NCBI RefSeq assembly: GCF_049896725.1
Contig: NZ_JAFCUW010000005.1
Location: 296,515-360,514 of the forward strand
DNA length: 64,000 nt
From: Massilia sp. PWRC2
Lineage (GTDB): Bacteria; Pseudomonadota; Gammaproteobacteria; Burkholderiales; Burkholderiaceae_D
Reading direction: 5' to 3'
A program made the position numbers and the translations under genes. The notes under the pieces are model-generated. The model was not told the origin of the DNA. It searched no databases and worked only from the letters and a program-made list of their open reading frames with translations. The stretch's first letter is position 1. Each line of letters starts with the position of its first letter. Positions 10,832 to 63,195 of this stretch are shown here, in pieces.

Positions 10832-10927
10832 GAGGTTTCCTGTATCGGGTTTCTACGAACCTAATATCGTTATTTTACGATATGTCCAGATTTTTTGCTG
10901 GAGGTGGCGCGTTTTACGTCCAGCCCC

Positions 10928-29783: not shown

Positions 29784-30811
29784 GCGCCGCCGCACCTGTA
29801 CCATCGGCCAGCGCCAGCGTGTGCAGCGTCCTGGCCGATGGCAGCACGCTGACGGTGACGGCCACGCGCCGCCCGCGCGCCAACCGCGCCGACATCAAGT
29901 GCAGCGTGCCGGCCTCGCCGGCACTGGCCGCGCGCCTGCAGCAGGTGCTGCAACTGGCGCGTCTGACCGAAGCGCGCTTCGACAGTCGCGATCAGGTGGT
30001 GGTCAGTTTTGATGCCACCCCTGCCGATCTGGAGCGCGACTGGGAACTGCCAGCAGTGCTGGCCGACCGCCTGGTGCGTGGCCTGTATCAGCCACGCAAA
30101 GCGGTGTGGGCAAATGGCTGGTCGGACCACTGGCAGCTTGGCCGCATCGATGGCAGCGCGCTCGCCGCTACCGATGCGCCAGACGTACCGGCGGGGACGC
30201 TGGTGGGCGGGCCTGACGGCCTGGCTCACCTGGGCATGTTGACCGGCCGGCCCGACCAGGCCGGGGCGGTATCGAGCGCACGCACCTGGTTCCCGCTGCA
30301 CAGCGGTGGCGTCAACGACAGCCTGTGCTGGGTCGAGGTCAGCGTCTATCCGCTGCTTGCTGGCGCCGCTGAAGAAGAAGAGTGCATCGCCGTGCCGGGG
30401 CTCGATGTGCTGGGGCAGACAGCGGTGCGGGCGACGCTGGCGGCGGCGCGCCGCTTCGACCCCTATGGCAGTGGGCGCTGGAACAGCGTGGTGCGCTTCG
30501 GCGCGTCGCGCTTCCAGGGCAATTCGTGGCAACTGGCGGCGGTGATGGCCGATCGGCTGGCGCGCGGGCGCGAATTCGTGCCGCGCGGGCGCATCCTGGC
30601 CAGCGGCTGTTCGGCCGACTGGCAAAGCGGCCGCGTCGACACCGTCGAGGCGCGCGAGGCCAAGCTGGCGCTGCTGCTGGCGCAGGCGGTGACGGGGGAC
30701 CGCCTGCTGTTGCCGGCGGCGTGGGAGGCGGCACTGCCAGCCGGCTTTGTCGAAGCGCTCGCCGCCAGCGGCGCCAGTGTCGCCTGTGTCGAACGCATTG
30801 GCATGATTTGA
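29780..30811 (+). CDS. Hypothetical protein (343 aa).
   Basis: It overlaps the upstream stop by 4 bp. No recognisable domain. Confidence 0.5.
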   Translation: MSAAAPVPSASASVCSVLADGSTLTVTATRRPRANRADIKCSVPASPALAARLQQVLQLARLTEARFDSRDQVVVSFDATPADLERDWELPAVLADRLVRGLYQPRKAVWANGWSDHWQLGRIDGSALAATDAPDVPAGTLVGGPDGLAHLGMLTGRPDQAGAVSSARTWFPLHSGGVNDSLCWVEVSVYPLLAGAAEEEECIAVPGLDVLGQTAVRATLAAARRFDPYGSGRWNSVVRFGASRFQGNSWQLAAVMADRLARGREFVPRGRILASGCSADWQSGRVDTVEAREAKLALLLAQAVTGDRLLLPAAWEAALPAGFVEALAASGASVACVERIGMI

Positions 30812-30917: not shown

Positions 30918-33083
30918 ATGCAGATGTTTGGAATGGGCGGCGCCAAGTGTCCCCGCTGTGAGCACAAGAATGCCGGCACGGCCGCTTACTGCGCGCAGTG
31001 CGGCCTGCTGCTGGGCGCGCCCCGCAATGCGCCCGTGCTGGTCGATAATCGCTGGATCGCCGGCGCTGACGAACTGGCGGTGTTCTTCGGTGTGCAGGCG
31101 CTAGCGGGCCTGTTTGTCAAGACCTTGCGGGTACCGGCCACCACCCGCGCCTATATTCTTCAGGGTGGCGCCGCCACCGAGGTGCCGCAGGGCGACTACG
31201 AGATCGAAGGTTTTTTTAGCCGCTTGAACAACCTGCTGCGCGACGACCACGCCGAAATCCTGATCACCCGCAGCACCCCGGTGGTGCTGGTGTTTGCCTT
31301 CGACGAGCTGGCCAGCGCCGAGCACCTGGCGCTGTCGGTGCAGCTGTCGGTGAGCGTGCAGATCGAACAGGTGGCCGCGTTTGCGCGCCACTTCATGACC
31401 ATGCCGGGTACCGTCAGCAGCGCGCAACTGGTCGAACTGCTGGCGCCGTCGGTGCGCCAGCTGGCCGCCGAATTCATCGCCGGCCAGTCACTGCGCGACA
31501 TGAGCCGCAATGGCGCGCTGCGCGCCCAGTTTGACGAACGCCTGCAGGGCGGCCTGCAGCAGCGCCTGGCGCTGTATGGGCTGGCGGTGGTGCAGGTCGA
31601 CACCCTCAGTCTGAAACACGATAAATTCGACGCCCACCGTGCCCGCATCGGCAGCCTGTGGCTGCTGGCCGACGAGCGCAACGTCGAACTCGAACATGCG
31701 GGCCACCTCGACGCACTGTATGACGACGGCGAGTGGCAAAAAATCCGCCGCGCCGAAGCCGACAGCCGGCTGCGTTACCGGCGCGCCGAACTGGCGCAGG
31801 ACGATGCCATCGACAAGGCCGAACTGTCGCTGCAAAACAGCGAACGCCTGCAGGCGGTGCGCGCGCGTGAAATCGAACTGTACTCGCGCATCGTCGAAGC
31901 GAAAAACCGCCAGCAGGCCATCGCCGCCGGTGCCGGCGAAGTGCTCGCTGAACTCGAACACGAGCAGGCGCAGAAAAACGCCGCGCGTGGCGATGTCGCT
32001 GCCGACTGGGCCCATTCGCGTCACATCGCCCAGATCCGCATGCGCACCGAACTGGAATTGTCGCAGCAGCAGGCGGTGGAAAGCCGCCAGCTGGCGCAGC
32101 AGCGCTTTTCGCACCAGCTGTTGCAGCAGCAGATCGGCAACAAGGTGGCGCAAGCGCTGCTGATCGAAGATGAAACGGCCAAGCGCAATGAACTGGCGCG
32201 CCTGCGCCAGGCGCGCCAGAGTGCCGACGGTCGCCAGGCGGCCATCGAGCACGAGCAGCACATTGCGCGCCACCAGGCGCTGGCGCTGGTCAATGCCGCC
32301 CATGCGCGCGAGGCGGCGCGCCTGCAGGAATGGGAAGACCAGCTGGCGCAGGAGCGCGCGCGCGAACTGGCGCGCAGCAGCGGCGCCCAGGACGCCCTCA
32401 GCCAGCACGAAAAACTGCTGCGTACCATCGCCGCCGACGATCTGCACAGCCGCAACGCCGACCAGCGCATGCTGGCCATCGAACAGGCCCGCCACCAGCA
32501 GGGACAAGACAGCCAGGAAGCCCAGTGGCAGCAAGAGCTGCGCCGCATCGGCGCGCAGCGCGAAGCGCGCTTTGCCGAGCTGACCCAGCAGGCCGACCTG
32601 GCGCGCCTGGAGATCGCCCGCGCCGACAGCCTTGGCGCCATGAGCGACACTGCCAAGCTGGCGCTGGCCGGTGCCGCCAATGCAGCGGTGCTGGCCGATT
32701 ACCTCAAAACCCAGGTCCACGCCGGCATGGGCGCCGACCAGCTGGCGGCACTGGCGGCGGTGGTGGGCGCCACCAATAGCGTCACGCCGCAGGAAGCGCT
32801 GCGGCTGGCCGACCTCCGCGAGCAGCGCGACAGCGCGCGCCGCGAGCGTGACATCGACAAGGACCGCCAGCACCAGCTCGAGCTGATCAAGCTGCAGAAT
32901 GATGTCAACAAGGCGGCGCTGGCGGCGCAGTCGCAGCTGGGGATCGGCGTCGCCGGCGGCGGCGCTGCTCCTGCCGTTGCTGCGGCCGCGCCTGGCGCGG
33001 ACGTGCCGCGCTGCCCGCACGGCCATCCGGTGCGCGCCGGTGAGCGCTTTTGCGGCCACTGCGGCGCCGCCCTGGGAGCGTAA
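30918..33083 (+). CDS. Double zinc-ribbon protein with a long Q/R/E/A-rich coiled coil (possibly a band-7/SPFH-like segment).
   Basis: An N-terminal CPRCEHKNAGTAAYCAQCG and a C-terminal CPHGHPVRAGERFCGHCG zinc ribbon flank about 450 aa of predicted coiled coil. Confidence 0.55.
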   Translation: MQMFGMGGAKCPRCEHKNAGTAAYCAQCGLLLGAPRNAPVLVDNRWIAGADELAVFFGVQALAGLFVKTLRVPATTRAYILQGGAATEVPQGDYEIEGFFSRLNNLLRDDHAEILITRSTPVVLVFAFDELASAEHLALSVQLSVSVQIEQVAAFARHFMTMPGTVSSAQLVELLAPSVRQLAAEFIAGQSLRDMSRNGALRAQFDERLQGGLQQRLALYGLAVVQVDTLSLKHDKFDAHRARIGSLWLLADERNVELEHAGHLDALYDDGEWQKIRRAEADSRLRYRRAELAQDDAIDKAELSLQNSERLQAVRAREIELYSRIVEAKNRQQAIAAGAGEVLAELEHEQAQKNAARGDVAADWAHSRHIAQIRMRTELELSQQQAVESRQLAQQRFSHQLLQQQIGNKVAQALLIEDETAKRNELARLRQARQSADGRQAAIEHEQHIARHQALALVNAAHAREAARLQEWEDQLAQERARELARSSGAQDALSQHEKLLRTIAADDLHSRNADQRMLAIEQARHQQGQDSQEAQWQQELRRIGAQREARFAELTQQADLARLEIARADSLGAMSDTAKLALAGAANAAVLADYLKTQVHAGMGADQLAALAAVVGATNSVTPQEALRLADLREQRDSARRERDIDKDRQHQLELIKLQNDVNKAALAAQSQLGIGVAGGGAAPAVAAAAPGADVPRCPHGHPVRAGERFCGHCGAALGA

Positions 33084-33092
33084 CAGGCCACG

Positions 33093-35426
33093 ATGTCAGC
33101 GCCGCCGCCCACCCCGATGCCGTCCGCCCGCGACAAGTTGCGCGAGCTGCGCGCGCTGCATGAAGATGGCCTGCTCAGCCAGCAGGAGTTCGACAGCCGC
33201 CGCAACGCCATCCTCGACGCTGCATATGCACCGACGGCGCCACCTGCAGCGTCAGCCACAGCGTCAGCAAGGGCGGCGCCGGCAGCTGATTCTTTTGGGA
33301 TGGCGCGCCCGGGCACCGAGCTCGGTCTGATGGTGGGCCAGGAAATCGGCCCGCAGCAGCGCCGCTACCGGCTCGAACGCCTGATCGCCCAGGGTGGCAT
33401 GGGCCAGGTGTGGCAGGCGCTCGATCTGGCCACCCACCAGGAACTCGGTCACAGCGCGTCGGTGGCAGTGAAAATCCTGCCACCCCAGCTGACCGTCAGC
33501 GCCACCCATGCGCGCCTGCTGCTGGAGGAGGCGACCCAGGCGCGCCGGCTGGCGCATGAGCACATTGTGCGGGTCTACGAATGGGCCCAGGACCCGGCCA
33601 CTTCCAGCTATTTTTTGATCATGGAATGCCTCGAGGGCGAAGACCTCGACAGCCTGCTGGCGCGCGAGACGCGCATGCCCTTCGACCGTGCGCTCGGTCT
33701 GCTCGAACCGGTCGCCGGCGCGCTCGCCTATGCGTGGGACAAGCACCGGCTGGTGCACCGCGATATCAAGCCGGGCAATGTGTTCGTCACCAGCAGCGGC
33801 GACGTCAAGCTGCTCGACTTTGGCATCGCCGCGCGCGCGCGCTCGTCGGCCAGCAGCATTGGCCTGGAAGCGCCGGCCGATTCCGGTACCGCCGGCTACC
33901 GCGCGCCGGAAGCCGGTGTGCACCAGCGCAAACCGGCGCCCACCCAGGATGTCTATGGGGTGGCGGTGATGCTGTACCAGATGCTGGAAGGGCGCCTGCC
34001 ATTCGATGGCCCGCGCGACCCTGCCAGCACGCTGACGCCAGCGCGTCCGCCCGGTCTGAACGATGCCCAGTGGCGCCTGCTGCAGACGGGCTTTGCCATC
34101 GATGCGGCGCGGCGCCCCGCCAGCGTGCAGAAATTGCTGGTGCAGCTGCGCGCCGCAGGCAGCGCGCCAGCGTCGTCGTCGGCGGCGGCAGCAGCAGCGG
34201 CAATGGCGCCGGCAGCGGTGCGGCCGGCCGCCAGTGCCGTCGAACTGGCCGCCGCCAGCCAGCGCGAACAGCTGCGCGCGCAACAGCAAGCGCAGCGCAC
34301 GCTGGAAGCGGCGGCCGCCGTCCAGCAAGCCAATCGCGAGCGGCGCGAACAGGAAAAAGCCCAGCGCCTGCTGCTCGACGCCGCCCGCAGCGAGCGCAAG
34401 GAAGCGCTGCGCCGCCAGCTGCTCGAACGGCGCGCGCTCGATGCCGAGACAGCGCGCATCGAGCGCGAAGAGGCGCACAGGAAGGCGCTGCAAGCCAGAG
34501 CGGCAGCGGCCTACCGCCAGGAACAGCAGCGTGCGCGCGCCGAGGTGGCCGCCCGCGTGCAGGCCGAACTGGCGGCGCTACTGCCGTCAGCATCGAGCCC
34601 GGTGGCCGACAGTGAGGGGGTGCTGCGCGACCGCTTTCTCGATGGCTCGGCGGTGGCGCCCGACCTGGTGCTCATACCCACCGGGCGCTTTCAAATGGGT
34701 TCGCCCGAGCATGAGCGCAAGAAGGCGATCGACGCCGGCTCGCAGCAGTCGTGGGTCGAGCGCGAAACGCCGCAGCGCTGGGTCGGCATCGAAAAGCCCA
34801 TCGCCATGGGCCGCTTTCCCATTACCGTCGGCCAGTGGCGCCTGTTTGTTGCCGCCAGCGGCTGGCAGGCGCCGGCCCAATTCAATTGGGCCGAGCCGGG
34901 TTTTCGCCAGGCTGACGATCACCCGGTGGTGGGCGTGAGCTGGCATGACGCCGTCGCCTACGCCGCCTGGCTGTCAAGCATGACGGGCCAGCGCTACCGC
35001 CTGCCCAGCGAAGCCGAATGGGAATACGCCTGCCGCGCCGGCACCCGCAGCGCGTTTAGTTTTGGCGACTCCATCAGTACCGATCTGGCCAACTACGACG
35101 GCAACTTCAGCTACAACGACAGCCCGAAAGGGGTGTACCGCAAGGGCACCACAGCGGTCACGCAATTCCCGCCCAACCAGTGGGGGCTGTACGACATGCA
35201 CGGCAATGTGTGGGAATGGGTGCAGGACGTGGTGCACGATAATTACCAGGGCGCGCCCAATACCGGCCGCGCGTGGGAAGATGGCGGCGATCCGGGACGG
35301 CGCATCTTGCGCGGCGGCTCGTGGCTGTACAATCCGCGTTATCTGCGTTCGAGCCTGCGCAACGGCTTTTCGGCCACGCGCAGCAACGGCATCATCGGCT
35401 TTCGGCTGGCGCGCGAGCTCCTTTAA
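33093..35426 (+). CDS. Hanks-type Ser/Thr protein kinase fused to an N-terminal SHOCT domain and a C-terminal formylglycine-generating-enzyme (FGE-sulfatase/SUMF1-like) domain.
   Basis: The SHOCT domain reads KLRELRALHEDGLLSQQEFDSRRNAIL. The kinase domain has the motifs VAVK, HRDIKPGN, DFG and GTAGYRAPE. The FGE domain has VGVSWHDAVAYAAWLS, RLPSEAEWEYACRAGT, WGLYDMHGNVWEWVQD and RGGSW. Confidence 0.9.
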   Translation: MSAPPPTPMPSARDKLRELRALHEDGLLSQQEFDSRRNAILDAAYAPTAPPAASATASARAAPAADSFGMARPGTELGLMVGQEIGPQQRRYRLERLIAQGGMGQVWQALDLATHQELGHSASVAVKILPPQLTVSATHARLLLEEATQARRLAHEHIVRVYEWAQDPATSSYFLIMECLEGEDLDSLLARETRMPFDRALGLLEPVAGALAYAWDKHRLVHRDIKPGNVFVTSSGDVKLLDFGIAARARSSASSIGLEAPADSGTAGYRAPEAGVHQRKPAPTQDVYGVAVMLYQMLEGRLPFDGPRDPASTLTPARPPGLNDAQWRLLQTGFAIDAARRPASVQKLLVQLRAAGSAPASSSAAAAAAAMAPAAVRPAASAVELAAASQREQLRAQQQAQRTLEAAAAVQQANRERREQEKAQRLLLDAARSERKEALRRQLLERRALDAETARIEREEAHRKALQARAAAAYRQEQQRARAEVAARVQAELAALLPSASSPVADSEGVLRDRFLDGSAVAPDLVLIPTGRFQMGSPEHERKKAIDAGSQQSWVERETPQRWVGIEKPIAMGRFPITVGQWRLFVAASGWQAPAQFNWAEPGFRQADDHPVVGVSWHDAVAYAAWLSSMTGQRYRLPSEAEWEYACRAGTRSAFSFGDSISTDLANYDGNFSYNDSPKGVYRKGTTAVTQFPPNQWGLYDMHGNVWEWVQDVVHDNYQGAPNTGRAWEDGGDPGRRILRGGSWLYNPRYLRSSLRNGFSATRSNGIIGFRLARELL

Positions 35427-36522: not shown

Positions 36523-38070
36523 TCAGGCCGTATGCAAGTCGCCCGTCATGGCCTGCTGCAGCTGGCCGGCGGCGGTGCGGATGATCCACGACTCTGGATA
36601 CGGTTCGCCGGCAAAGCGCACGTGGCGGGCACAGCCGCCCAGGCGGTCCAGTTGCGCGCCCGGCGCCAGCGCCGTTTCGACGCCGCTGGCAGGGTCAAGG
36701 TGCCAGAAACCGCCATCGCGGTGAAACAGCAGCGGCATGGCCGCCGCGCGCGGCGCGCAGGCGCTGGCCGCCAGCGGAAAGCCGGGGTGGCGGCCGGGCG
36801 CCATCAGGTAAAAACTCTCGGCACAGTCGCCCTGGTCGAGGCGGTGCAAGATCACTGCGTGCGGCAGCAGCGCCGTCACGCACAGCACCACCACGCCCTT
36901 GATGCTGGCGGTCAGTTCAATTTTCATGCCCAGCCGCAGCGGCACCGCAGCGTGCTTGCCGGGCCAGACGCCGTCGAGCAGGATGCCGTAGCGCGACACA
37001 TCTTCGATCTCGAAGCCCCGTTCGCCCCGGCGCAACAACGCATGGCGGCCCGACAGGCGCCGCGTCAGGCCGCCCGTCTCCTGGCCGGCATCGCCGAAAT
37101 GGGCCAGCAGCACGTCGCCTTCGGGATCGTACTGTTCCCACCGTCCCAGCACGCATTCATCGAGGGCGAACAGGCGCAGCTGGCGCTGGTCGCCGCAGTC
37201 CGGGGCGGCATTGACCAGGCAGGCGGCAGTCAGCGGACACGGATGGGGCGCGGCGTTCGCTGGCAGGTCAATTTCAATCAAGTCTTCGTCCCAGGCGATG
37301 CTGGCACAGCCCAGGTCGACCTTGCCGATGGCGTCCAGATTGAGCTGGGCGATCGAGGCATTGCGCGCCAGCACCTCGATATCGAGGCGGCCGCTGCTGC
37401 TGCCGTTGAGTTTGGCGATCGAGCCGTCGTCAGCCACCACCCGCACATTTTTATGGGTGGCCAGGAAAGTCTGGTGGATGTCGGTCAGGCTGGCATCGGC
37501 GCGCGGCACCAGCAGCAGCATGGTGCAGACCCAGCGGCGCGCCGGCTGACCGTCGTTGCCGCCGCTGTTGACACTCATGCTGGTCAGTTCGACATCGATC
37601 TGGTACTGGCCGTGTTCCTTGTCGCGCGAAGAAAATTCGATGAACAGGGGCCGCCATTCGCCGCGCGTGGTGCGCTCGAGCTTGTGGGTGGCGCCACCGC
37701 CGGCCATCAGGGCCGAGCGCAGGCGCATGCTCAGCAGGGGGGCGGCGCCCGGCGCCATGCCGCGCAATTCCACCTTGATCGCTTGCCTGCCACCGGCGGC
37801 GCGCGGATCGAAGCCGCTCACGTGCAGGTAACAGCGGGCGGCGGTGGGCAGGGTCATGCCGACCGCTGCGGCGGTGGCCACGGTGGTGGTCGCCATGGCG
37901 CCACTGCGCGTCGCCCGCGCCGCGCTGACCAGCTCAAAACTGCCGGGCGCGGCTGCCGCCGCTGCCACCGCAGTCACTGCTACCTGCGCATGGCCGGCCG
38001 CGCACACTGGGTCGCCGGGCAAGACCCAGAGCGTGCAATGCGGGTGGTCGACGTTGCTGCACTTGTTCAT
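36523..38070 (-). CDS. FHA-domain protein (FhaA-like architecture, with the FHA in the C-terminal half).
   Basis: The FHA signature reads ...CVLGRWEQ...DVLLAHF...LSGRHALLRRGERGFEIEDVSRYGILLDGVW...LRLGMKIEL. It lies immediately downstream of the PP2C gene on the same strand. Confidence 0.7.
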   Translation of the reverse strand: MNKCSNVDHPHCTLWVLPGDPVCAAGHAQVAVTAVAAAAAAPGSFELVSAARATRSGAMATTTVATAAAVGMTLPTAARCYLHVSGFDPRAAGGRQAIKVELRGMAPGAAPLLSMRLRSALMAGGGATHKLERTTRGEWRPLFIEFSSRDKEHGQYQIDVELTSMSVNSGGNDGQPARRWVCTMLLLVPRADASLTDIHQTFLATHKNVRVVADDGSIAKLNGSSSGRLDIEVLARNASIAQLNLDAIGKVDLGCASIAWDEDLIEIDLPANAAPHPCPLTAACLVNAAPDCGDQRQLRLFALDECVLGRWEQYDPEGDVLLAHFGDAGQETGGLTRRLSGRHALLRRGERGFEIEDVSRYGILLDGVWPGKHAAVPLRLGMKIELTASIKGVVVLCVTALLPHAVILHRLDQGDCAESFYLMAPGRHPGFPLAASACAPRAAAMPLLFHRDGGFWHLDPASGVETALAPGAQLDRLGGCARHVRFAGEPYPESWIIRTAAGQLQQAMTGDLHTA

Positions 38071-38170: not shown

Positions 38171-39202
38171 TTAATTTTTCTCCATCGATGCATACGTATG
38201 ATCATCATTGTGGTTGCCGCTGTTGCTCGCAGCGGACAGCGGCCGGATGACGATGGCTGTCAGATTGTCCAAATGTAAATTGTCGGGTGGATGGTGGCCG
38301 AGCGCAGAAAACAGCCGCTCCACCATGGCGTTGGCGTCGGTTTCTCCCAGCAAGGCCGGCCAGCTGTTGACCCACGCTTGCGGCGCCGCGCACGACCAGA
38401 AGCCGTCGGTGGCCAGCAGATAACTGGCGTGCGCACGCAGTGTCAGCGCGCGGCGGTCGGGCAGGTGGCGCAAAAACGGCGGCAGCCGTTCGCTGCTGAG
38501 CGGATACAGACCGTCGGCCAGCGTCGACGGGTCGGCAAACGCGTTGCCCAGTACAAAAGCCTGGGCGATTTGCGGGCGGTGTTCGCCGTGCACCTGCTGC
38601 CACCATTCAGCGGCCTGCAGCACCCCGGCCATGGCAAATGCGGTGGCCGGCACATGGTCAACGGTGAGCACGCTGATGCTGTCGTGGCCCAGTTCATACA
38701 ACCGCGAGTCGCCCACGTGGTACAGCATGGGCGCCTGGCCGGGGGCGATTTCCAGCAGGGTGAGGGTGGTGCCGGGGCGCCGCGAGGGCGGCCGCACGGC
38801 GCCAGCCTGGCTGGCAAAATCGGCCTGCAGGCGGGTGTGCAGGGCGTCGAGGTCGGCGCACACCTCGGCCAGCGTCGACCATGCGGGCAGCGCCAGCAGG
38901 CCGGCGACGACCGCCTCGGCTGCCTCGCGGCCATGGCCGTGCCCCCCCATGCCGTCGAGCACCGCCACGCGCAGGTGGCCGGCCGGCCAGTTTGCCAGCT
39001 GGGTATCTTGCAGTTGCTGGCCGTGCAGAAAGCGGGCACGGCCGGTGGCGTCGATCAGCAGGAAATTGTCCTGGTTTTCAAGGGGCGTGGCAGGGTCGGC
39101 GCTGGCGCGCGAGGCGGCGGCGATGTCGAAGTGCTGACCAAAATCTAAGGGGGGTAAGGCAGGCATCGGGCTGTCCTGGAAGGCGAAGCCACAGCTTAAC
39201 AA
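38171..39202 (-). CDS. PP2C-family Ser/Thr protein phosphatase.
   Basis: PP2C motifs are present: VLDGMGGHGHGREAAE, and LTVDH.. / DG with metal-binding Asp residues. The start may instead be 39166 (MPALPPL). Confidence 0.85.
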   Translation of the reverse strand: MLSCGFAFQDSPMPALPPLDFGQHFDIAAASRASADPATPLENQDNFLLIDATGRARFLHGQQLQDTQLANWPAGHLRVAVLDGMGGHGHGREAAEAVVAGLLALPAWSTLAEVCADLDALHTRLQADFASQAGAVRPPSRRPGTTLTLLEIAPGQAPMLYHVGDSRLYELGHDSISVLTVDHVPATAFAMAGVLQAAEWWQQVHGEHRPQIAQAFVLGNAFADPSTLADGLYPLSSERLPPFLRHLPDRRALTLRAHASYLLATDGFWSCAAPQAWVNSWPALLGETDANAMVERLFSALGHHPPDNLHLDNLTAIVIRPLSAASNSGNHNDDHTYASMEKN

Positions 39203-39227: not shown

Positions 39228-40481
39228 TTAGAGGGGGTTTTCCCGCTTGCCCAGCCACAGCGCGATGGCGTTGACGATCACGCAGGCACCAGCAACTGCC
39301 AGCGCCGCCTGCACGCCGAGATGGTCGGCCAGGCGTCCCCACACCAGGCTGCCGACGGTATAGCCGCCGGCCATGACGAACAGGTAAATCGACAAGGTGC
39401 GCGCCCGTATGTGGATGGGGAATGAGGACTGCGCGGCAGCATTCAGGGTCGACACCACTGCCGACCAGGCCATGCCGCCACACAGCACCAGCGACAGCAG
39501 CACCGGTAGCGAGCGCACACAGGCCATGGCGATCAGCATCACGCCATAGACCAGCAGCGCGCAGCTGAGCAGGCAGCGGCGGTCGTAGCGGCAGCGCAGG
39601 CTGGGCAGCAGGAAGGCCGCCAGCACGGCGCCGCAACCGAGCGCGCCCATCAGGGTGCCGAACACGCTCGAATTCATGTGCAGCACGTCGCGTACGAATA
39701 CCGGCAGCAGGCTGGCAAAGGCGATCGTGGCAAAGAACACCGTGCACACGTTGCACAGGATGTGGCGGTAGCGCGGGCAGCCGAAGGCGCAGGCCAGGCC
39801 CGCCTTGAGGCTGTCGGCAAAGCCAATGCTGGCGATCACGGCCGGCCGGCCTTCGCGCCACCACGACCAGTACACCGTCAGCAAACCAATGAAGGAGATG
39901 GCATTGACGAAAAACAGCACGCCGGGGCCGATCCAGCTGAACAGCACGCCACCGAGGGCGGGACCGATGACGGCGGCGACGTTGTAGCTGAAGTTGTTGA
40001 GGGTGGCGGCCGCTTCCACTTCATCGGGCTCGACCAAGCCGGATATGGCCGCCTGCCAGGCCGGCCACATGAAAGCCGAACCGGCGCCCAGGCAAAACGT
40101 CAGCGCCAGCACCGGGCTGGCCGAGACGTGGCCGGTCAGCACCAGGCCGGCCAGGGTGCAGGCGCACAGGGCCATGAACAGATTGCAGTAAAACAGGAAG
40201 CGGGGGCGGTCGACGGCATCGGCCACCACCCCGGCGATCAGCGCGAACAGAAAGATCGGTACGTAACTGGCGGTCTGCACCAGCGAAGTGGTCGAGGCCG
40301 AATGCGACATCGAAGCGATCATCCAGGCCGAAGCGAAGGTCTGGATCCAAGAGCCGAGATTGGAGAGCAGGTTGGCGCACCACAGGTGGCGGTAACGCAC
40401 GTGGCGCAACGGCTGCGTCAGGGGGACCTTATGACGCACGGTACGCGCGGGCAGGGGGGCGGTGGCGCTGTCTTTGGACAT
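39228..40481 (-). CDS. MFS transporter.
   Basis: A 12-TM protein with an EntS/efflux-like N-terminus, starting at MSKDSAT. Confidence 0.85.
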   Translation of the reverse strand: MSKDSATAPLPARTVRHKVPLTQPLRHVRYRHLWCANLLSNLGSWIQTFASAWMIASMSHSASTTSLVQTASYVPIFLFALIAGVVADAVDRPRFLFYCNLFMALCACTLAGLVLTGHVSASPVLALTFCLGAGSAFMWPAWQAAISGLVEPDEVEAAATLNNFSYNVAAVIGPALGGVLFSWIGPGVLFFVNAISFIGLLTVYWSWWREGRPAVIASIGFADSLKAGLACAFGCPRYRHILCNVCTVFFATIAFASLLPVFVRDVLHMNSSVFGTLMGALGCGAVLAAFLLPSLRCRYDRRCLLSCALLVYGVMLIAMACVRSLPVLLSLVLCGGMAWSAVVSTLNAAAQSSFPIHIRARTLSIYLFVMAGGYTVGSLVWGRLADHLGVQAALAVAGACVIVNAIALWLGKRENPL

Positions 40482-40656
40482 GCACCCGAGTCTACGGTGC
40501 GGGCGCGACACTGGTCAATGCTTGATGGAATTAATTGTGACTGTCGGGTATGAACGTTGTAGCGCGGCCATGTCGAAACGCCATGCAGCTTGGCGTGCTG
40601 CTATCGAATAAACCAATCATATGAATGATAATGACCATGGCATGGCGGTGCGATCC

Positions 40657-41130
40657 TCAGCGTTGGCGCGCGTGCGCTTCTTCTGCGCGCCGCAACCACA
40701 GGCTGCTGACCCAGCCGTCGAGCTGGCGCTGGCCGATGCTGGCGCGCACCTGCCACCAGTCGCCTGCGCGCACGCCGGTGGTGGTGACCGTTGCGCCGGC
40801 CGGCACCAGCGCCAGGCGCGCGCCATCGATGCTGGCGCTGGCGCGCAGATTGAGGTCGTCGAAGGCGCGGTAGCTGGTGCGCTGATACGTCGGTGGCGTA
40901 CTCGCAGCGGCGCTGCGCGCGGCGGCTTGACCGGCCAGCTGTGCTGGCGCTGGCGCCGTGGTCGGTGGCGCCAGCGCCAGTAGCGCACTGCCGATGCCCC
41001 AGCTGCCCGCCGCCACCAGCGTGATCGCTTTCAGATTGGGGCGGCGCCACCAGTGTGCTGGCGTGCAGACCGAGGCCAGCGCCAATGTCAGCACGAAGGC
41101 GGCGGCGAAGATGGCAAACAGGTAGCCCAT
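40657..41130 (-). CDS. Membrane-anchored bacterial SH3 (SH3b) domain protein.
   Basis: An N-terminal TM is followed by an SH3_3-like segment (YRAFDDLNLRASASIDGARLALVPAGATVTTTGVRAGDWWQVRASIGQRQLDGWVSSLWL). Confidence 0.6.
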   Translation of the reverse strand: MGYLFAIFAAAFVLTLALASVCTPAHWWRRPNLKAITLVAAGSWGIGSALLALAPPTTAPAPAQLAGQAAARSAAASTPPTYQRTSYRAFDDLNLRASASIDGARLALVPAGATVTTTGVRAGDWWQVRASIGQRQLDGWVSSLWLRRAEEAHARQR

Positions 41131-41139: not shown

Positions 41140-42753
41140 TCAGGCGTCGAAACGCAGCACGTAGTGACCGGCCACCAGGTGGTGCCCGGGCGGCAGCAGA
41201 TACGGCGCGGCGCCGTCGAGGGTGGCGACGAAATCTAGCCGGGCGTCGAGGTGATAGAGCGCCTGGGTGGCAGCGAGCCGGCCGATCTGAAAGCCGCCGG
41301 CGGTGGCCTCGAAACTGAAGGCATTGCGCGACAGGCCGATCCGGTCGGCGCTGGCGCTGTCATCGGTGAGCCCAGCGGCGCTGCGCACGAAACGGGGCGA
41401 GTCGAGCACGCGCAGGGCCGCCAGCATGGGGGCGCCACGGCCGAACACAAAGCGGGCGCCGCCGGGTACCGGTAATCCCGGCGGGTTCGACAGCCTGGGC
41501 TGCGCCGGCAAGATCAGCAGCGCGCAATAGCGCTCGGCCATGGCGGCGGCGACGCTGGCCAGGCCGATGCTGGCGCCATCCATCGGGCTGAAGCTCGACG
41601 GTACGCTGATCGCTTCGCGGCCGGCGGCGGTGATCGCCATCAGCGCATCGTTGCCATCGACGGCAAAGCGGATCACCGCTTCGACCCCGGGCGCGGCCAC
41701 CGCCAGCTGTTCGTCAAAACCAATTTCGAGGGCGGCGGCGCCGGTTTCGCGGTAGCGCGACAGGCGCGGCAGGGCCAGCGCGGCCAGCGTCACGCGCTGG
41801 CCGGCCAGCGGTGCATACGTGGCATCGGCGCTGTCAAGCGCGCCAGCGCCGCGCGCGGTCGCGGGCGCCGCCGCCAGTGGCAGCGCGGTGGCGTCGCTCG
41901 CTGCCGGTACCTCGGCGCTGCTCGCTGCCGCTGTCTCTGCGCCGCGCTGCTTCCAGACTGTGGCGGCACGCGCGGGCGCGCCTGCGCTGGCGGCGCTCGC
42001 AATCGGCGCACGCGCCGGCGCCGGCGCCCCCAGCCGGGTCACCTTGAGCAGCAGGCGGCGCGCCGGCGTCAAGCCAGCCTTCGAGCGGATTACGTAGTAG
42101 CCGCCCAGCGGATCGAAACTGCAGTCGAAGGCTTGCTTGGGCCGCACTTGCACTTCGAGGGGAGCGTCGGCGCCGTCGTTGATCAACAGGATGGCCGGTT
42201 CACCGTTGCTGCCACCGGCAGCATCGGCAGCATCGGCAGCATCGGTAGCAGCGGCACCCACCAGCGCCAGCCGCTGGTTCTGGTAGATCGGGCACCGTGT
42301 CTGCCAGATCGCGCTGTCGCTGGAGGTGGCGACCTGGTAGAGCACCGCTTCGCCGGCCGCTGGCAGATAGACGGCGTGGCCGAAGCGCACTTCGACCTGG
42401 CCCGCTGCGAGCGACTCGGCGCCGACGACGTCGTAGCGCACTTCGTCGTTGCCGAGCAGGTCGCCGAAATCCTTCTGGTGCAGCGCCGCTAGCGAAGCGG
42501 CCAGGTCGCGCACGCGCGCGCCGCGCGTGAGGTGGCGGTCATCGTCGACGTCGTCCTGCGGCAGCATCAGGGTGATGTGCGAAAAGCAGCGGGTGGCAGC
42601 GCGCCCGCGCTGCTCGCGTGGCGAGCGCTCGAGCAGGTCGCGCAGCAGCGGGCGGCGCGCAAACAGCGCCAGGCCGGGCGCCTGCCACAAGGCTTCGGCA
42701 TTAAAGACGTCGGCCACCTTGCCTAGCACTTCGTGTTGTACGTAGACGGGCAT
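41140..42753 (-). CDS. Hypothetical protein (537 aa) co-operonic with the FHA-SEDS gene, possibly with a degenerate FHA-like C-terminus.
   Basis: The proposed start MPVYVQHEVLGK at 42753 has the RBS GGAG upstream and overlaps the SEDS gene's 3' end. There is a 9-bp repeat encoding (DAA)n. The C-terminal FVFGRGA...LSRNAFSFE segment is FHA-like, but this is a weak call. Confidence 0.5.
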   Translation of the reverse strand: MPVYVQHEVLGKVADVFNAEALWQAPGLALFARRPLLRDLLERSPREQRGRAATRCFSHITLMLPQDDVDDDRHLTRGARVRDLAASLAALHQKDFGDLLGNDEVRYDVVGAESLAAGQVEVRFGHAVYLPAAGEAVLYQVATSSDSAIWQTRCPIYQNQRLALVGAAATDAADAADAAGGSNGEPAILLINDGADAPLEVQVRPKQAFDCSFDPLGGYYVIRSKAGLTPARRLLLKVTRLGAPAPARAPIASAASAGAPARAATVWKQRGAETAAASSAEVPAASDATALPLAAAPATARGAGALDSADATYAPLAGQRVTLAALALPRLSRYRETGAAALEIGFDEQLAVAAPGVEAVIRFAVDGNDALMAITAAGREAISVPSSFSPMDGASIGLASVAAAMAERYCALLILPAQPRLSNPPGLPVPGGARFVFGRGAPMLAALRVLDSPRFVRSAAGLTDDSASADRIGLSRNAFSFEATAGGFQIGRLAATQALYHLDARLDFVATLDGAAPYLLPPGHHLVAGHYVLRFDA

Positions 42754-45125
42754 GATTGCATCTCCTCGAAAGTTTGCGCGCTGATCGCAGTAAACGCTAG
42801 CAGGGGGCAGATGAAAAACAGCAGGTGGCTGCCGCCCGCCGACAGAAAGCTCATGGGCTGGCCCATGATGGGAAAGATCGATAGATTGGTGCCCCATGAC
42901 AGCAGCAGGTGACCGAGCACGAAGGCGGCGCCGCCGCACAGGGCAAAGCAGCAGAAGCGCCCCAGCCAGGCCTGGCGAAAGTCACGCGCTGCCTGCGCCG
43001 CCGCATGGGCGCGCGCCGCCACCTGCAGCACCCCAGTGAGGAACAGCGCCTGCAGCAGCCACAGGACGAGGGCCGCCGCCAGGCCGTGGCGGTAGAGGAA
43101 AAACGCCGGCGCGAAATCGTCCTGGACCTGGGGGATGCGCAGGGCGGCGCCGCCATCCTGGCCCAGGCTGGCCACGCCCAGCAGATGATCTTCACCCCAC
43201 CAGCCGCCGGCGGCAATCGCGCGCGCGCCTTGCAGCAGTTGCTGGCCCGTGTGCGGGTGGCTGGCCGGGTCGAGCCAGACCAGGAAGCGGTCGGCATAAA
43301 AACTCCAGCCGGCCACTTCGCCAGCGCCGGCGAGGCGCAGCCAGACGATGGCCGCCACAGCCGCCAGCGCCAGAGCGCCGATGGCCGCCACCGCCAGGCG
43401 GCTGCGCGCACTCAAGGCCCAGGCAAAGGCCAGCGCCGTGCTCCACACCAGCAGCAGGATCAGCGGCGAGTAATCATCGACTTCCAGCAGCGCCAGCATC
43501 AGCAGGGCGGCAAACAGCAGCGCCGGCGCCGCCAGCCGGCACCAGCGCCACAACGGGTGGCTGTGGACCGGCATGGCCACGGCCAGCGGCTGATACCAGC
43601 CCATGCCGATCGCCAGGCAGTGCGCCGCCAGCGCGCACAAGGCGAGCTTGGCCAGTTCGACCGGCTGCAGGTCGAATACCCCGGTTTCGTCACCGAACAG
43701 CACCTGGGCCGCCAGCGCCAGCAGGGCCACCCCGGCCAGCAGCAGCAGCAGCCATTCGAGGCGGCCCTGGCTGATCAAGCCCGGCCGGCCCAGCCAGCGC
43801 AGGCGCAGGTGGGCGCCCACCCCCAGGCCGATTGCCAGCAGGGCAGTGCTTTTCTGGTAGTGGCGCAGCCACGACGATTCTTGCGCCGCCAGTCCCAGGT
43901 CGAGCTGGGCCAGCAGACCGATGGCCAGCAGCAGCGCGGCGGCGGCGCTGGCCAGCTGCAGGCGTGCCGGCAGCAGCAGTAACGAAAACAGGGCGGCGCA
44001 GCCGAGCAGCACCGACCAGCCGACGCCGGGCGCCGTGCCGGCACGCTGCAGCAGCAGCGCGCCAAGGCCGGCGATGGCCAGCAGGGCGCTGGCGGCGGCG
44101 CCGCTGGCCAGCGCCAGGCTGGTGGCGCCCGCTTCGAACGGCCAGCGGCCACGCTGCCAGGCCTGCGCCAGCCACACCACCAAGGCGGCGCACAACGCTG
44201 CGGCAATACCCCAGGCGGACCCGCCCGGCAGCTGCCACAGCGTGCGCGTGCGCCATTGCCAGCGCACTGCTGACGGTAAGGGCGCGGCGCTGTCCTGTGC
44301 ATACAGGGCGACGTGGCCGAGCGGGCGCAAGCTCAGGGTGGCGCCATCGACATGGGCGGCAAAGCGGGTGTGGCCAGCGACGATCGACGTTACAGCATCG
44401 AGGCCGTCGGCGCCATCGAGCCACTGGCGCTGCTGCGCCAGGGCGAAGCTGGCGCCGCTGGCCGGCATCATGGTGACGCCGCTACCGGCCAGCAGCAGGC
44501 GGCCGTGGTCGATGGCCAGCCCGGCGAGCGCCGCGTCGATACCGGCGATACCGAGCCGGTTGCCGCAATACAGATTGCCGCCAAAGACCAGCGGCCGCGC
44601 CAGCGCCAGCGCCGCGGGCAGCAGCCGGTTCCACCAGCCTAGCGCCCGCGCTGCCAGCGTGGCGTCGGGGCAGGCTGGCTGGGCGGCACCGGCGCGCAGC
44701 AGTTGCGCACCATCGTACTGCCAGCTGCCGCCAGCGCCGTGAAAGCCGATGCTTTGTTCGCCGGCGTGGTCAACCACGAAGCGCGCCGTGCCCAGCGCAA
44801 AAGCGTCACCGGTTGCCAGCGCGATGGCGCCACTGCGCTGGTCGATGCCGCCGCGCTGGATCAGCAGCTGGCGGCTGGCGCTGGCGTTGGCCAGCGACCA
44901 GCGGCCGTCGGCGTCGCGCTGCAGATCGAGGTGGGCGCGGTCGGCCTGGGGCGCGGCCAGTTCGCGCGCGCCCAGCGTGAGCTGCTGGCCCGGCGCCAGG
45001 CGGATGTCGATGCGTTCGGGTGAGGCCAGCGCCGGCGTCCGGGCGAGCGTCAACCACTGCAGGGCGCACAGCAGCGCCAGCGCCAGGCCGACGACGGCCA
45101 GCCGTGCAGGTAGCGGGGCCTTCAT
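42723..45125 (-). CDS. SEDS-family (FtsW/RodA/SpoVE-like) peptidoglycan glycosyltransferase with an N-terminal FHA-like domain.
   Basis: The C-terminus carries the SEDS signature (IPQVQDDFAPAFF ... IFPIMGQPMSFLSAGGSHLLF). There are more than 10 TM segments. The N-terminal FHA-like segment after the first TM reads LTLGARE...AHLDLQRDADGRWSLANASASRQLLIQRGG...GDAFALGTARFVV. The ATG overlaps the stop of the upstream kinase gene. Confidence 0.78.
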   Translation of the reverse strand: MKAPLPARLAVVGLALALLCALQWLTLARTPALASPERIDIRLAPGQQLTLGARELAAPQADRAHLDLQRDADGRWSLANASASRQLLIQRGGIDQRSGAIALATGDAFALGTARFVVDHAGEQSIGFHGAGGSWQYDGAQLLRAGAAQPACPDATLAARALGWWNRLLPAALALARPLVFGGNLYCGNRLGIAGIDAALAGLAIDHGRLLLAGSGVTMMPASGASFALAQQRQWLDGADGLDAVTSIVAGHTRFAAHVDGATLSLRPLGHVALYAQDSAAPLPSAVRWQWRTRTLWQLPGGSAWGIAAALCAALVVWLAQAWQRGRWPFEAGATSLALASGAAASALLAIAGLGALLLQRAGTAPGVGWSVLLGCAALFSLLLLPARLQLASAAAALLLAIGLLAQLDLGLAAQESSWLRHYQKSTALLAIGLGVGAHLRLRWLGRPGLISQGRLEWLLLLLAGVALLALAAQVLFGDETGVFDLQPVELAKLALCALAAHCLAIGMGWYQPLAVAMPVHSHPLWRWCRLAAPALLFAALLMLALLEVDDYSPLILLLVWSTALAFAWALSARSRLAVAAIGALALAAVAAIVWLRLAGAGEVAGWSFYADRFLVWLDPASHPHTGQQLLQGARAIAAGGWWGEDHLLGVASLGQDGGAALRIPQVQDDFAPAFFLYRHGLAAALVLWLLQALFLTGVLQVAARAHAAAQAARDFRQAWLGRFCCFALCGGAAFVLGHLLLSWGTNLSIFPIMGQPMSFLSAGGSHLLFFICPLLAFTAISAQTFEEMQSCPSTYNTKC

Positions 45126-46105
45126 GCGATGGCCTGCTCGCGCGCCCGCCTGGCTGGCGCCATTGCGGCGGCCAGCAGGCGGGCAATCGCCAGCGCATGC
45201 GGCGGCCGCGCCGCTGGCTGCGGTGCCAGCAGGGTGCGCAGCAGCAGCAGCGCATGGCCAGCTGCGCCGCGTGCGGGCAAATCGTCACAGTGGCGCACGA
45301 ACAGCGCCGCTTCGTCATCGGCCAGGGTGTGGCAGGCTGCGGGCTGGTTTGCCAGACCGTGCTGCTGGCGCCAGGCCTGGGCCGCATCGATGCAAAAGCG
45401 CAGTGGCACGCCACCCGTGATCAGGTAGTACAACAGGGCGCCCAGCGTAAAATAATCGGTGGCGGCGCAGGTGACGTACCCGCTGCCGTCGTGGCCGGCC
45501 GTGGCCGCCCACAGCTGTTCCGGCGCCTGCCAGTGGGGAGTGCCGGCATAGGGATGGGGAGCGCGGTCGGCCAGCGCCCGGCTGGTACCGAAATCGGCCA
45601 GCTTGAGGGTGGTGTCGCGTGCGCCTCTGCTGAGCAACAGGTTCGAGGGTTTCAGGTCGAGGTGGCGGCGGCCGTACTGGTGCACCTTGGCCAGCGCCTG
45701 GTTGACCTGGCCGATCCACACCAGGGCCTGCAGCGGATCGACCGTGCTGCCGGCGGCGCGGCGGCATGCGACCCAGGCGCCAAGATCGCCGCCGAGCAGC
45801 TCGAGCGCCAGCACCGGCAGGCCGGCGTCGACGCCGCTGTCGAGCAGGCGCACGATGTGGCGGCCGTCCCACGGCGCCAGCTGGCGCAGGAAGGCCAGTT
45901 CGTCGTGGGCACCGTCGATCCAGCGCTGGCGCTGGTCAGGGACGGCCTGCACCATCTGCGCCTGGTTGACAAATTTGAGGGCCACCGCCGGCCCGGCCGG
46001 CAAGCGGGCGGCGCGCCATACCAGGCCGTAAGCGGAACTGGCCAGCGGCGCGTCGAGCCGGTAGCTGTGTGACGCCAGTGTAATAATGGTTCCTGCTGCC
46101 AGCAT
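45122..46105 (-). CDS. Hanks-type Ser/Thr protein kinase (no PASTA domains).
   Basis: The kinase motifs VALKFV, HLDLKPSNLLL, DFGTSRA and GTPHWQAPE are present. The start is MLAAGTII at 46105. Its stop overlaps the SEDS start (ATGA). Confidence 0.85.
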   Translation of the reverse strand: MLAAGTIITLASHSYRLDAPLASSAYGLVWRAARLPAGPAVALKFVNQAQMVQAVPDQRQRWIDGAHDELAFLRQLAPWDGRHIVRLLDSGVDAGLPVLALELLGGDLGAWVACRRAAGSTVDPLQALVWIGQVNQALAKVHQYGRRHLDLKPSNLLLSRGARDTTLKLADFGTSRALADRAPHPYAGTPHWQAPEQLWAATAGHDGSGYVTCAATDYFTLGALLYYLITGGVPLRFCIDAAQAWRQQHGLANQPAACHTLADDEAALFVRHCDDLPARGAAGHALLLLRTLLAPQPAARPPHALAIARLLAAAMAPARRAREQAIA

Positions 46106-46254
46106 GGCTTCCCGCTTCACGACCGGTTGTGGACACGGCGTGTGCCGTCCGCAAAGGCTTAGCAGGGGGCTGCAGCAATATCGGTCAGTAAAGCAACAAT
46201 GGGACAGGCGCGCGCCCATCCCATTGTTACTTCATTGCAGTGGCAGCCGGTCGA

Positions 46255-46722
46255 TCAGCGGTGATGACCGCCATGGCCCCAGCCGCCGTGGTGACCGCCG
46301 TAATAGCCGCCACCGCCGTAGCCGCCGCCCACATACACCACCGCCGATGGCTGGTTGTAGTAGTAGGTGGGTGCCGGCGCGTAATATACCGGCCGCTGTT
46401 CCACATAAACGGGGGCCGGCTCGTAATAGCGGGCGCGGTCATCGTAGTAGGCGCTGCGGTTGTCGACATAGCCGCCATTGCTGTAGCTTACGTTGCTGTA
46501 ACCACGGTTGTCATACCGGTCATTGGTCTGGATCGAATTACCCACCGCCGCGCCCAGCACGCCGCCGATCAGGGCGCCGTTGCGGTCATGGGTGCTGTTA
46601 CCGATGGCCGCGCCGATGACGGCGCCGGCGACCGTGTTAAAGCCACGGTCCTGGGCCATGGCCGTCGACGAGACGGCCGTTGCGGCCAAGAGCAGGGCGC
46701 CTACGAATTTTTTATTCAACAT
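46255..46722 (-). CDS. Glycine-zipper (Gly-zipper 2TM / outer-membrane-lipoprotein-like) secreted protein with a Gly/Tyr-rich tail.
   Basis: There is a signal peptide (MLNKKFVGALLLAATAVSSTAMA), followed by a glycine-zipper region (GAVIGAAIGN...GALIGGVLGAAVGN) and a GGGYGGGGYYGGHHGGWGHGGHH tail. Confidence 0.65.
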   Translation of the reverse strand: MLNKKFVGALLLAATAVSSTAMAQDRGFNTVAGAVIGAAIGNSTHDRNGALIGGVLGAAVGNSIQTNDRYDNRGYSNVSYSNGGYVDNRSAYYDDRARYYEPAPVYVEQRPVYYAPAPTYYYNQPSAVVYVGGGYGGGGYYGGHHGGWGHGGHHR

Positions 46723-46981
46723 GGCGATTTTCCTTTTGCCCCAGGCTCGATCAGGTTGATCAACAAACGCCGGGCATGAGTTCACTATAGCGACCGCCGC
46801 CAGCAGTGCTATTGTTAATACAGACGCTTACATCTGCGGCGGCTGTGTAACAAAGCGCTGTAACAAAGCTGTGCAACAATCGAGCCCAGCGCGACCGGGC
46901 ACCCGCTGTGTTTCCGCGCGCCGCCTTGCAGAGGCGCACTTGCTCCCCATCTGTTGACCTTCTTCATAGCCAAAGCCTGCC

Positions 46982-63152: not shown

Positions 63153-63195
63153 GATTCCGGCTCCGGGCACCAATAGACAGTGTTATAGAGCAGCA

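Follow-up and report, generated by a model that had tools for sequence, protein, structure and literature searches.

The 64-kb window analysed here is a stretch of 64,000 nucleotides from the betaproteobacterium Massilia sp. PWRC2 (contig NZ_JAFCUW010000005.1, positions 296,515 to 360,514), and the gene under study lies on its minus strand, where a single, unbroken open reading frame (ORF) with an ATG start encodes a protein of 800 amino acids (aa). The identical sequence is deposited at NCBI as WP_426113657.1, where it is labelled “FtsW/RodA/SpoVE family cell cycle protein”. An earlier note, made from the letters of this DNA, had given the span of the gene exactly (42723-45125), though not its strand, and had described the product as a phosphothreonine-binding FHA domain fused to a SEDS glycosyltransferase. 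The note had also reported an overlap with the kinase gene upstream, which is borne out: the TGA of the kinase gene (45122-45124) and the ATG of the SEDS gene (45123-45125) share the four letters ATGA, and the identical 4-nt overlap is seen in Massilia sp. R2A-15. The fusion gene is translationally coupled to this Hanks-type kinase gene. Scans for promoters and terminators gave nothing informative. The gene and its parts read as follows (TM, transmembrane; AF2, AlphaFold2; pLDDT, its per-residue confidence; K+R, lysine plus arginine).

42723-45125, minus strand: gene of the N-terminally extended SEDS-family fusion, 800 aa (ORF list; NCBI WP_426113657.1)
45045-45101, minus strand: TM0, a signal-anchor helix, aa 9-27, N-terminus inside (Kyte-Doolittle, AF2)
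44694-45029, minus strand: first FHA-like beta-sandwich (domain 1), aa 33-144, predicted to be periplasmic; its phosphothreonine site is degenerate (G52-A53; D62-x-x-H65; N80-x-S82)
44592-44693, minus strand: inter-domain linker with a helix (157-168) and the conserved Cys152 (AF2 secondary structure)
44247-44591, minus strand: FHA-like beta-sandwich 2, aa 179-293, apparently a diverged duplicate of domain 1 (hhalign, AF2 strands)
43968-44216, minus strand: three extra TM helices, aa 304-324, 337-361 and 368-386 (AF2 pLDDT 85-94, hydropathy, K+R of the flanking loops)
42762-43955, minus strand: canonical 10-TM SEDS core, aa 391-788 (PF01098, profile alignment, Foldseek)
43116-43118, minus strand: codon of D670; in FtsW/RodA, the aligned residue is the catalytic Asp of “TDF”, a motif of extracellular loop 4 (ECL4)

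The SEDS core is the best recognised part of the protein. The hidden Markov model (HMM) PF01098 (FTSW_RODA_SPOVE), which the earlier note had proposed as a check, matches aa 481-773 with 68.1 bits (E 9.3e-19; gathering score 26.4) and finds 44 of the 49 family members. When a family profile of 49 diverse relatives is aligned to proteins of solved structure, it covers residues 3-356 of Thermus thermophilus RodA and residues 25-379 of Pseudomonas aeruginosa FtsW (E 4.9e-15), i.e., both of them end to end, and the canonical core therefore begins near aa 390. AF2 places ten helices within aa 391-788, while Foldseek retrieves RodA (6PL5, chain 6pl5_A) and FtsW (8P1U, chain 8p1u_A) with the full-length model at a probability of 1.00; the known SEDS structures used for comparison were 6BAR, 6PL5 and 8P1U. 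The two stretches quoted earlier as a C-terminal SEDS signature do occur in the protein (IPQVQDDFAPAFF at aa 664-676 and IFPIMGQPMSFLSAGGSHLLF at aa 750-770), and a C-terminal PIMGQPMSFLSAGGS motif (also given as MGQPMSFLSAGGS) is conserved in the core. Moreover, the four residues that are essential in RodA and FtsW are intact, namely E490 and K493 of the QPxExxK motif (QPVELAK, aa 487-493), D551 of the PDxG loop and D670 of ECL4, the last being aligned as “PavqdDFapaff” against “PEAHTDFVFAVL”. All four, as well as the C-terminal GxPxxSxGGS motif, are near-invariant in a family that has diverged to ~25% identity. At the same time, the protein reaches neither the FtsW equivalog of NCBIfam (TIGR02614: 56.5 bits, cut-off 337.5) nor the RodA equivalog (TIGR02210: 54.7 bits, cut-off 336.7). 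Because these scores of ~55 bits fall so far below the ~337 bits of the cut-offs, the fusion is, by its sequence, a divergent SEDS paralogue, to the exclusion of the housekeeping FtsW and RodA.

As the earlier note had suggested, the same architecture was looked for elsewhere: more than 120 full-length homologues were found at 55-74% identity, all annotated as FtsW/RodA only. The search listed no 100% match because the cluster of the protein collection that holds the exact 800-aa protein has a 56-aa fragment as its representative. A search with the N-terminal module alone, over 1.84 billion proteins, retrieves just 89 representative clusters; apart from a few, these are fragments or proteins of 760-860 aa with the same architecture. 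A search for related loci using alignment A1 found 219 species genomes encoding a relative, from which 80 loci were kept; most carry the names Massilia, Telluria, Duganella, Rugamonas, Zemynaea or Janthinobacterium, alongside one locus labelled Burkholderia sp. and several metagenome-assembled genomes labelled only to the class or phylum. Neighbouring genes were counted over 81 loci (Oxalobacteraceae), to which all the fractions out of 81 given below refer. Two divergent members, from the loci L082 and L083, are 33-35% identical to the protein of the window.

Upstream of the core, the protein opens with TM0, found at aa 9-27 where a signal anchor had been proposed (Kyte-Doolittle peak of 2.26; AF2 helix at 5-28). 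A lipoprotein signal was rejected, as the LLC motif of TM0 has Leu at position -1, and a cleavable signal peptide was set aside, on length only, since the hydrophobic stretch of ~19 residues is long for one. TM0 is followed by a soluble, beta-rich region of ~270 aa and then by 13 further predicted TM helices, in line with the “more than 10” of the earlier note. In the full-length AF2 model, built with 36 homologues, the beta-rich domains at aa 33-144 and 179-293 are predicted at a pLDDT of ~90, and the module modelled alone (aa 30-300) reaches a pLDDT of 91.5 and a predicted template modelling (pTM) score of 0.83. When compared by hhalign, the two domains align with each other over 71 columns (90.7% probability, E 1.2e-6) and appear from this to be homologous; the second one carries Cys187 and an invariant GG (182-183).

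Whether these domains are FHA domains is a matter of degree. A bona fide FHA domain is available for comparison in p515, a protein encoded farther downstream on the same strand:

36523-38070, minus strand: p515, a cytoplasmic protein with a zinc-ribbon-like N-terminus and an FHA domain (PF00498 21.9 bits on the FHA region alone, cut-off 20.7)

Named “FHA domain-containing protein” at NCBI and present in 73/81 loci, p515 has no TM helix; PF00498 matches 16 of 26 orthologues (best E 3e-7), and its GR (309-310) and S340-x-x-H343 are invariant. Domain 1 of the fusion aligns to this FHA domain with 78% probability (hhalign, E 1.7e-5), the G-R, His and D/N-x-S positions being in register. The best Pfam match to the module is another member of the FHA clan, Yop-YscD_cpl, which stays below threshold (E 0.048 with the whole protein; E 0.0011 and 19.6 bits with aa 30-148, for a cut-off of 33.2). 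PF00498 itself, the check proposed in the earlier note, has no match on the whole fusion protein or on the isolated domains in Pfam and NCBIfam scans, and it recognises only 2 of the 49 family members (best E 8.9e-4). Neither phmmer with aa 36-320 nor hmmsearch with a 30-sequence profile of domain 1 matches any PDB sequence even at E 10, and Foldseek of the module against the PDB yields nothing significant (best E 0.13). What stands of the proposed FHA-SEDS fusion is thus a covalent union of an FHA-shaped sandwich with a SEDS core, in fact of two such sandwiches in tandem, while PF00498 remains silent. Because PF00498 is absent, Yop-YscD_cpl sub-threshold and Foldseek non-significant, the FHA likeness is a fold-level resemblance with remote sequence support, i.e., weak evidence of homology, and not an HMM-level domain call.

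It could even be asked whether the two domains are generic periplasmic beta-sandwiches unrelated to FHA (through convergence or as an artefact of small all-beta proteins), which would bind peptidoglycan or another envelope component. The absence of any significant match in Pfam, among PDB sequences or by Foldseek would fit such an origin, as would the 89 clusters retrieved with the module, none of which is recognisably FHA. Yet the conserved residues fall on the FHA landmarks (G-R, H, N/D-x-S), and both the hhalign probability to a genuine FHA domain and the E value of Yop-YscD_cpl speak for kinship, so that we hold an unrelated origin to be rather unlikely.

The side of the membrane on which the module lies can be deduced from the helices around it. 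The N-terminus of SEDS TM1 is cytoplasmic in the solved RodA and FtsW structures. Because TM0, the module and three helices precede a SEDS TM1 that starts in the cytoplasm, parity puts the module outside, and through the three extra helices the chain is predicted to regain the cytoplasmic side ahead of SEDS TM1. Across two alignments, of 36 and 49 sequences, the K+R density of 15 loops alternates without exception, with 0.08-0.53 K+R per residue in loops predicted to be inside versus 0-0.10 in short loops predicted to be outside (summed means of ~14 and ~1, respectively), and the two periplasmic landmarks, the QPxE loop and ECL4, are both on the “out” side of this pattern. At the other end of the chain, the N-terminal tail holds K2 and R8 (mean of 2.2-2.4 K+R in homologues), and a positively charged tail followed by a hydrophobic anchor exists in 49/49 diverse members. 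Finally, the module has exactly two cysteines, C152 and C187, which are present jointly in 48 of the 49 diverse homologues and jointly lost in the 49th, the number of cysteines in the module being even in 46/49 members. This is the pattern that a periplasmic disulfide would give, and C152 and C187 are probably so bonded. Taken together, the parity of the helices, the alternating K+R density and the covariation of the two Cys therefore place the module in the periplasm, a strong prediction, and thus outside the compartment of kinase and ATP, whereas the earlier note had assumed a cytoplasmic FHA segment.

The putative binding site has changed as well. The position of the phosphate-binding Ser (SxxH) is Asp62 here and Asp or Glu in 41/49 members, the Arg of the GR motif is Ala53 (Arg in 27/49 members) and the Asn of SxNG is not kept; G52 and H65 are kept. 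Because the module is predicted to be on the side devoid of kinase and ATP, and because Asp or Glu stands at the Ser position, it is most likely no reader of phosphothreonine; the loss of binding is, in our view, strongly indicated.

These results bear directly on the proposal of the earlier note, in which a cytoplasmic FHA domain would bind phosphothreonine made by the upstream kinase and so tether the kinase to the glycan polymerase. At face value, the proposal draws on the FHA-like fold, on the conservation of G52, H65 and N80 (with the GR dipeptide in 27/49 members), on the ATGA coupling to the kinase gene and on the kinase, PP2C and FHA genes conserved around the fusion. Nevertheless, the two outcomes that the note itself had named as speaking against it, no PF00498 match and a periplasmic placement, are those that were found: helix counting, charge bias, the N-terminal anchor of all members and the cysteine pair all point outside. 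Furthermore, the Ser that should contact the phosphate is acidic in most members, and the cluster already holds a proper cytoplasmic FHA protein. We consider such a tether very improbable. The note had also set the fusion against the actinobacteria, in which FHA genes are separate; here too, the FHA domain that is detectable in sequence sits in a separate cytoplasmic protein, p515. What does hold is that a SEDS protein and Ser/Thr signalling are genuinely linked at the genomic level, through a conserved kinase/PP2C/FHA cluster, of which the remaining genes are:

45122-46105, minus strand: Hanks-type Ser/Thr kinase, 327 aa, no TM helix (PF00069 87.3 bits; homologue in 79/81 loci)
41140-42753, minus strand: p537, a cytoplasmic protein of 537 aa (ATG at 42753 after GAGGAG; 31-nt overlap with the 3' end of the SEDS gene)
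40657-41130, minus strand: two-TM membrane protein ending in an SH3_3 domain that probably faces the periplasm (PF08239 36.1 bits; 78/81 loci)
38171-39202, minus strand: PP2C-type Ser/Thr phosphatase (PP2C_2 28.8 bits; Stp1_PP2C E 7e-12; 73/81 loci)

The kinase shows the motifs VALK41, HLDLKPSN148, DFG171 and APE194, without any hydrophobic segment and without a TM or PASTA domain. Its mechanically called ORF extends 38 codons farther upstream (46106-46219, minus strand), through a Cys-rich stretch (MGARLSHCCFTDRYCCSPLLSLCGRHTPC); this extension is probably untranslated because NCBI sets the start at 46105 and the protein collection holds that version only. The true start of the PP2C gene is probably near 39166. 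The most faithful partner of the fusion is p537, which is found in 81/81 loci and lies directly downstream of the divergent fusions too (hmmsearch E 7e-98 in L082 and 2.5e-56 in L083), although it is annotated as “hypothetical” everywhere. The p537 of the window is 100% identical to a protein of the Massilia sp. PWRC2 genome. No Pfam family matches p537, be it the protein of the window or 23 orthologues, and both a profile search of the PDB and an hhalign comparison with the FHA domain of p515 were negative. By eye, its C-terminus (41140-41480, minus strand) is FHA-like (FGRG...GLSRNAFSF...L..G..L.F), with Ala in the window where the L083 homologue (10357-12108) has the canonical His (GLSRRHLRL). 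An FHA domain was not called there, since the best support is an E value of 0.2 for the L083 homologue.

Two other genes accompany this cluster. A glycine-zipper protein (Rick_17kDa_Anti) with a Tyr/Gly-rich tail is encoded just upstream of the kinase gene (46255-46785, minus strand) in 75/81 loci. An MFS_3 transporter gene (39228-40511, minus strand) separates the SH3 and PP2C genes in 29/81 loci only. Its own promoter-like sites precede it (40643-40489), and the gene has the look of a variable insert into the conserved cluster.

In the current view, a SEDS polymerase requires a class B penicillin-binding protein (bPBP), by whose TM helix and pedestal it is activated. The window offers a candidate partner:

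23246-26614, plus strand: membrane-anchored transpeptidase of 1122 aa, without a pedestal domain (PF00905 57.9 bits, C-terminal, the sole Pfam match)

This type II membrane protein has a single TM helix at ~aa 60, no PBP_dimer domain and intact transpeptidase motifs (STFK789, SQN874 and KTG1052). It belongs to a block, consisting of the transpeptidase, unknown genes, a Band_7/zinc-ribbon gene, a gene combining SHOCT, kinase and FGE-sulfatase domains, and a Pirin gene, that converges on the series p515, PP2C, ..., SH3, p537, fusion and kinase; the entire converging arrangement, transpeptidase included, is kept in Massilia sp. R2A-15. Moreover, at least 15 transpeptidase homologues are found on contigs equal in size to those carrying homologues of the fusion or of p537. 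In L082, a transpeptidase homologue (46% identity) is encoded 6 kb upstream of the fusion, while in L083 a TM-anchored protein of 339 aa encoded directly upstream of the fusion (6960-7979) shares 31% identity with aa 347-620 of the transpeptidase. The latter similarity suggests that the middle region of the transpeptidase may be a periplasmic domain in its own right, with a link to the family of the fusion.

With this protein in view, TM0 and the tandem module may be regarded as a built-in surrogate of the TM helix and pedestal of a bPBP, which would activate the SEDS core in cis and dock the 1122-aa transpeptidase, thereby completing a third peptidoglycan synthase. The topology fits: a bPBP stem likewise consists of one TM helix with its N-terminus inside and then a beta-rich domain in the periplasm, the “TM anchor + pedestal” that TM0 plus the module recalls. 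The transpeptidase keeps STFK, SQN and KTG and has no PBP_dimer domain, and its synteny in R2A-15, the contigs of equal size and the homologues beside the L082 and L083 fusions all favour an association. Pairings of this kind between enlarged glycosyltransferases and pedestal-less transpeptidases have been proposed in a 2025 survey (PMC12516126). However, in the window the transpeptidase gene is 16 kb distant and on the opposite strand. We entertain this surrogate role tentatively, as a possibility with the odds against it. The wider proposition, that Oxalobacteraceae and some distant bacteria known from metagenomes only carry a third, self-contained synthase made of a cis TM helix with a tandem FHA module, a giant pedestal-less transpeptidase and a kinase/PP2C/FHA switch acting through p537, is doubtful; if true, it would be a new way to build and regulate a SEDS-transpeptidase pair in Gram-negatives.

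The genomic context also informs the question of what the core does. In L082, the divergent fusion lies among SLT/LysM and MltA genes and a canonical mrdA-rodA pair (3 kb away), and therefore it is an extra, i.e., accessory, SEDS protein. One could still argue that lipid II is not polymerised by this protein, whose substrate for polymerisation or ligation would be a different undecaprenyl-linked glycan, or which would have lost catalysis and serve the kinase module as a membrane sensor or scaffold. The very low equivalog scores (~55 vs. ~337 bits), the lack of a bPBP in the operon, the low AF2 confidence of the core and a neighbourhood of signalling genes instead of the classical dcw or mrd genes would all agree with this. 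Against it, the four essential residues and the GxPxxSxGGS motif have stayed near-invariant despite divergence to ~25% identity, the L082 gene lies among cell wall genes, including mrdA and rodA, and the SH3_3 protein and the transpeptidase are syntenic. On balance, we find a role other than lipid II polymerisation quite improbable, and infer with moderate confidence that the fusion would polymerise lipid II.

The best explanation, to which we assign a probability of roughly 0.62, is that the fusion is an accessory, divergent SEDS peptidoglycan glycosyltransferase with 14 TM helices and a periplasmic, FHA-like module that does not bind phosphothreonine, under a phospho-control exerted in trans. 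Its architecture, fold, SEDS residues and synteny are direct results; the steps that would connect them are the following. The N-terminus of the fusion would be cytoplasmic and TM0 would cross outward, leading to two tandem beta-sandwiches of FHA-like fold in the periplasm, probably stabilised by the disulfide. Three more helices would return the chain to the cytoplasmic face, where the complete 10-TM SEDS core would follow. The module would most likely act as a periplasmic platform for interactions with proteins or glycans, possibly as a pedestal surrogate. Ser/Thr phospho-control would be provided in trans by the soluble Hanks kinase (coupled upstream), the PP2C phosphatase and the cytoplasmic FHA protein p515, while p537, translationally coupled downstream, would be an obligate cytoplasmic partner. 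The targets of the kinase, PP2C, p515 and p537 would be p537 itself or cytoplasmic parts of the synthase (loops or tails). As for the kinase target, the conserved C-terminal tail (EE.QSCRS.SNTK in the Massilia clade) and p537 might be considered, though as weak candidates.

Several points weigh against this explanation. What supports a periplasmic module is the number of helices, the bias in charge and the covariation of Cys. Of the six helices ahead of SEDS TM4, the one at aa 424-444 has only moderate hydrophobicity (<1.5 in a Kyte-Doolittle window of 19 residues); were it not membrane-spanning, the parity would flip. The homology to FHA is weak in sequence, for want of PF00498 and PDB matches and of a significant Foldseek hit, and the SEDS core is modelled at low AF2 confidence (pLDDT 45-80). 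Because a class B PBP gene (PBP_dimer/Transpeptidase) was not found inside the conserved six-gene cluster, any polymerase activity would have to do without its usual partner nearby. Finally, the divergent L082 member has no adjacent kinase, and kinase coupling is therefore not universal in the fusion family.

Compared with RodA and FtsW, the fusion has a homologous 10-TM core, with QPxExxK, D551, the catalytic Asp of ECL4 (D670) and the C-terminal GGS motif, but it differs in ~390 extra N-terminal residues (the anchor, two periplasmic beta-sandwiches and three TM helices), in scores far below the equivalog cut-offs, in the lack of an adjacent class B PBP and in its setting within a kinase/phosphatase/FHA cluster. 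Such a setting recalls the operon fhaA-fhaB-pstP-rodA-pbpA-pknA-pknB of Mycobacteriales (bioRxiv 10.1101/2024.08.13.607006), where a SEDS protein, Hanks kinases, a PP2C phosphatase and separate cytoplasmic FHA proteins are likewise clustered. Here, however, the host is betaproteobacterial, the gene order is other, the kinase is soluble, without TM helix or PASTA domain, and the Massilia cluster has no pbpA-like gene, whereas its SEDS protein has an extra periplasmic module. Beyond the FHA domain of p515, neither p537 nor p515 has a detectable relation to FhaA or FhaB.

FHA folds that do not bind phosphothreonine have been reported in secretion machines, namely the N-terminal domain of YscD/PrgH in the type III system (Yop-YscD_cpl) and the tandem domains of EssC/YukB in the type VII system. 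The module, with its divergent FHA-like fold, resembles them in being devoid of the canonical phosphothreonine-binding residues and fused to a membrane machine, in tandem as in EssC/YukB. The FHA-like domains of YscD/PrgH and EssC/YukB are cytoplasmic, whereas the Massilia module is predicted to be periplasmic, with a predicted disulfide; an FHA fold working in the periplasm would be, to our knowledge, an unusual case. Another parallel is found in enlarged SEDS glycosyltransferases with an outward region rich in beta-sheets, e.g., in Bosea lupini, for which a pairing with pedestal-less transpeptidases was proposed, the extra domain being described as pedestal-like and the transpeptidase gene being adjacent (Microlife 2025, PMC12516126). 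The Massilia protein resembles that type in joining an extracytoplasmic beta-rich domain to a SEDS core, with a pedestal-less transpeptidase in synteny, but it differs in a fold that is FHA-like and does not resemble the bPBP pedestal (PF03717), in four extra TM helices, in the distance of the candidate transpeptidase (16 kb) and in the attached Ser/Thr module.

We found no description of an FHA-SEDS fusion architecture in the literature, and the databases label the protein only as a member of the FtsW/RodA family; it would thus be a so far undescribed variant of the SEDS synthases, with the mechanism proposed above. As far as we know, the cytoplasmic regulation of SEDS polymerases in Gram-negative bacteria is poorly understood, and the fusion amounts to a natural experiment, in which a SEDS core comes with four additional helices and a periplasmic module of its own and is always paired with the cytoplasmic p537. 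Its setting in Oxalobacteraceae is a kinase/phosphatase/FHA cluster like that best known in mycobacteria. If the module replaces the pedestal, or if phosphorylation gates the enzyme, the range of ways in which cell-wall synthases are assembled and controlled would be wider. For annotation, the case calls for caution, as not every FHA-shaped fold attached to a membrane protein need read phosphothreonine, and both topology and binding residues need checking.

A few other features of the window may be mentioned. Between the transpeptidase gene and the Band_7 gene, three ORFs (443, 472 and 343 aa; 26696-30811, plus strand) have no Pfam match; they occupy the most GC-rich part of the window (0.70-0.73), and R2A-15 has four unknown genes at that place. 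The two genes that follow encode a protein of 721 aa with a Band_7 domain between two zinc ribbons (30918-33083, plus strand) and a protein of 777 aa with SHOCT, Pkinase and FGE-sulfatase domains and no TM helix (33093-35426, plus strand), both kept in the R2A-15 supercluster. In L082, a protein combining Peptidase_C14 and FGE-sulfatase domains takes the corresponding place. Finally, an Rfam scan reports no family near the fusion gene, its sole match in the 64 kb being one tRNA gene (63086-63169, plus strand).

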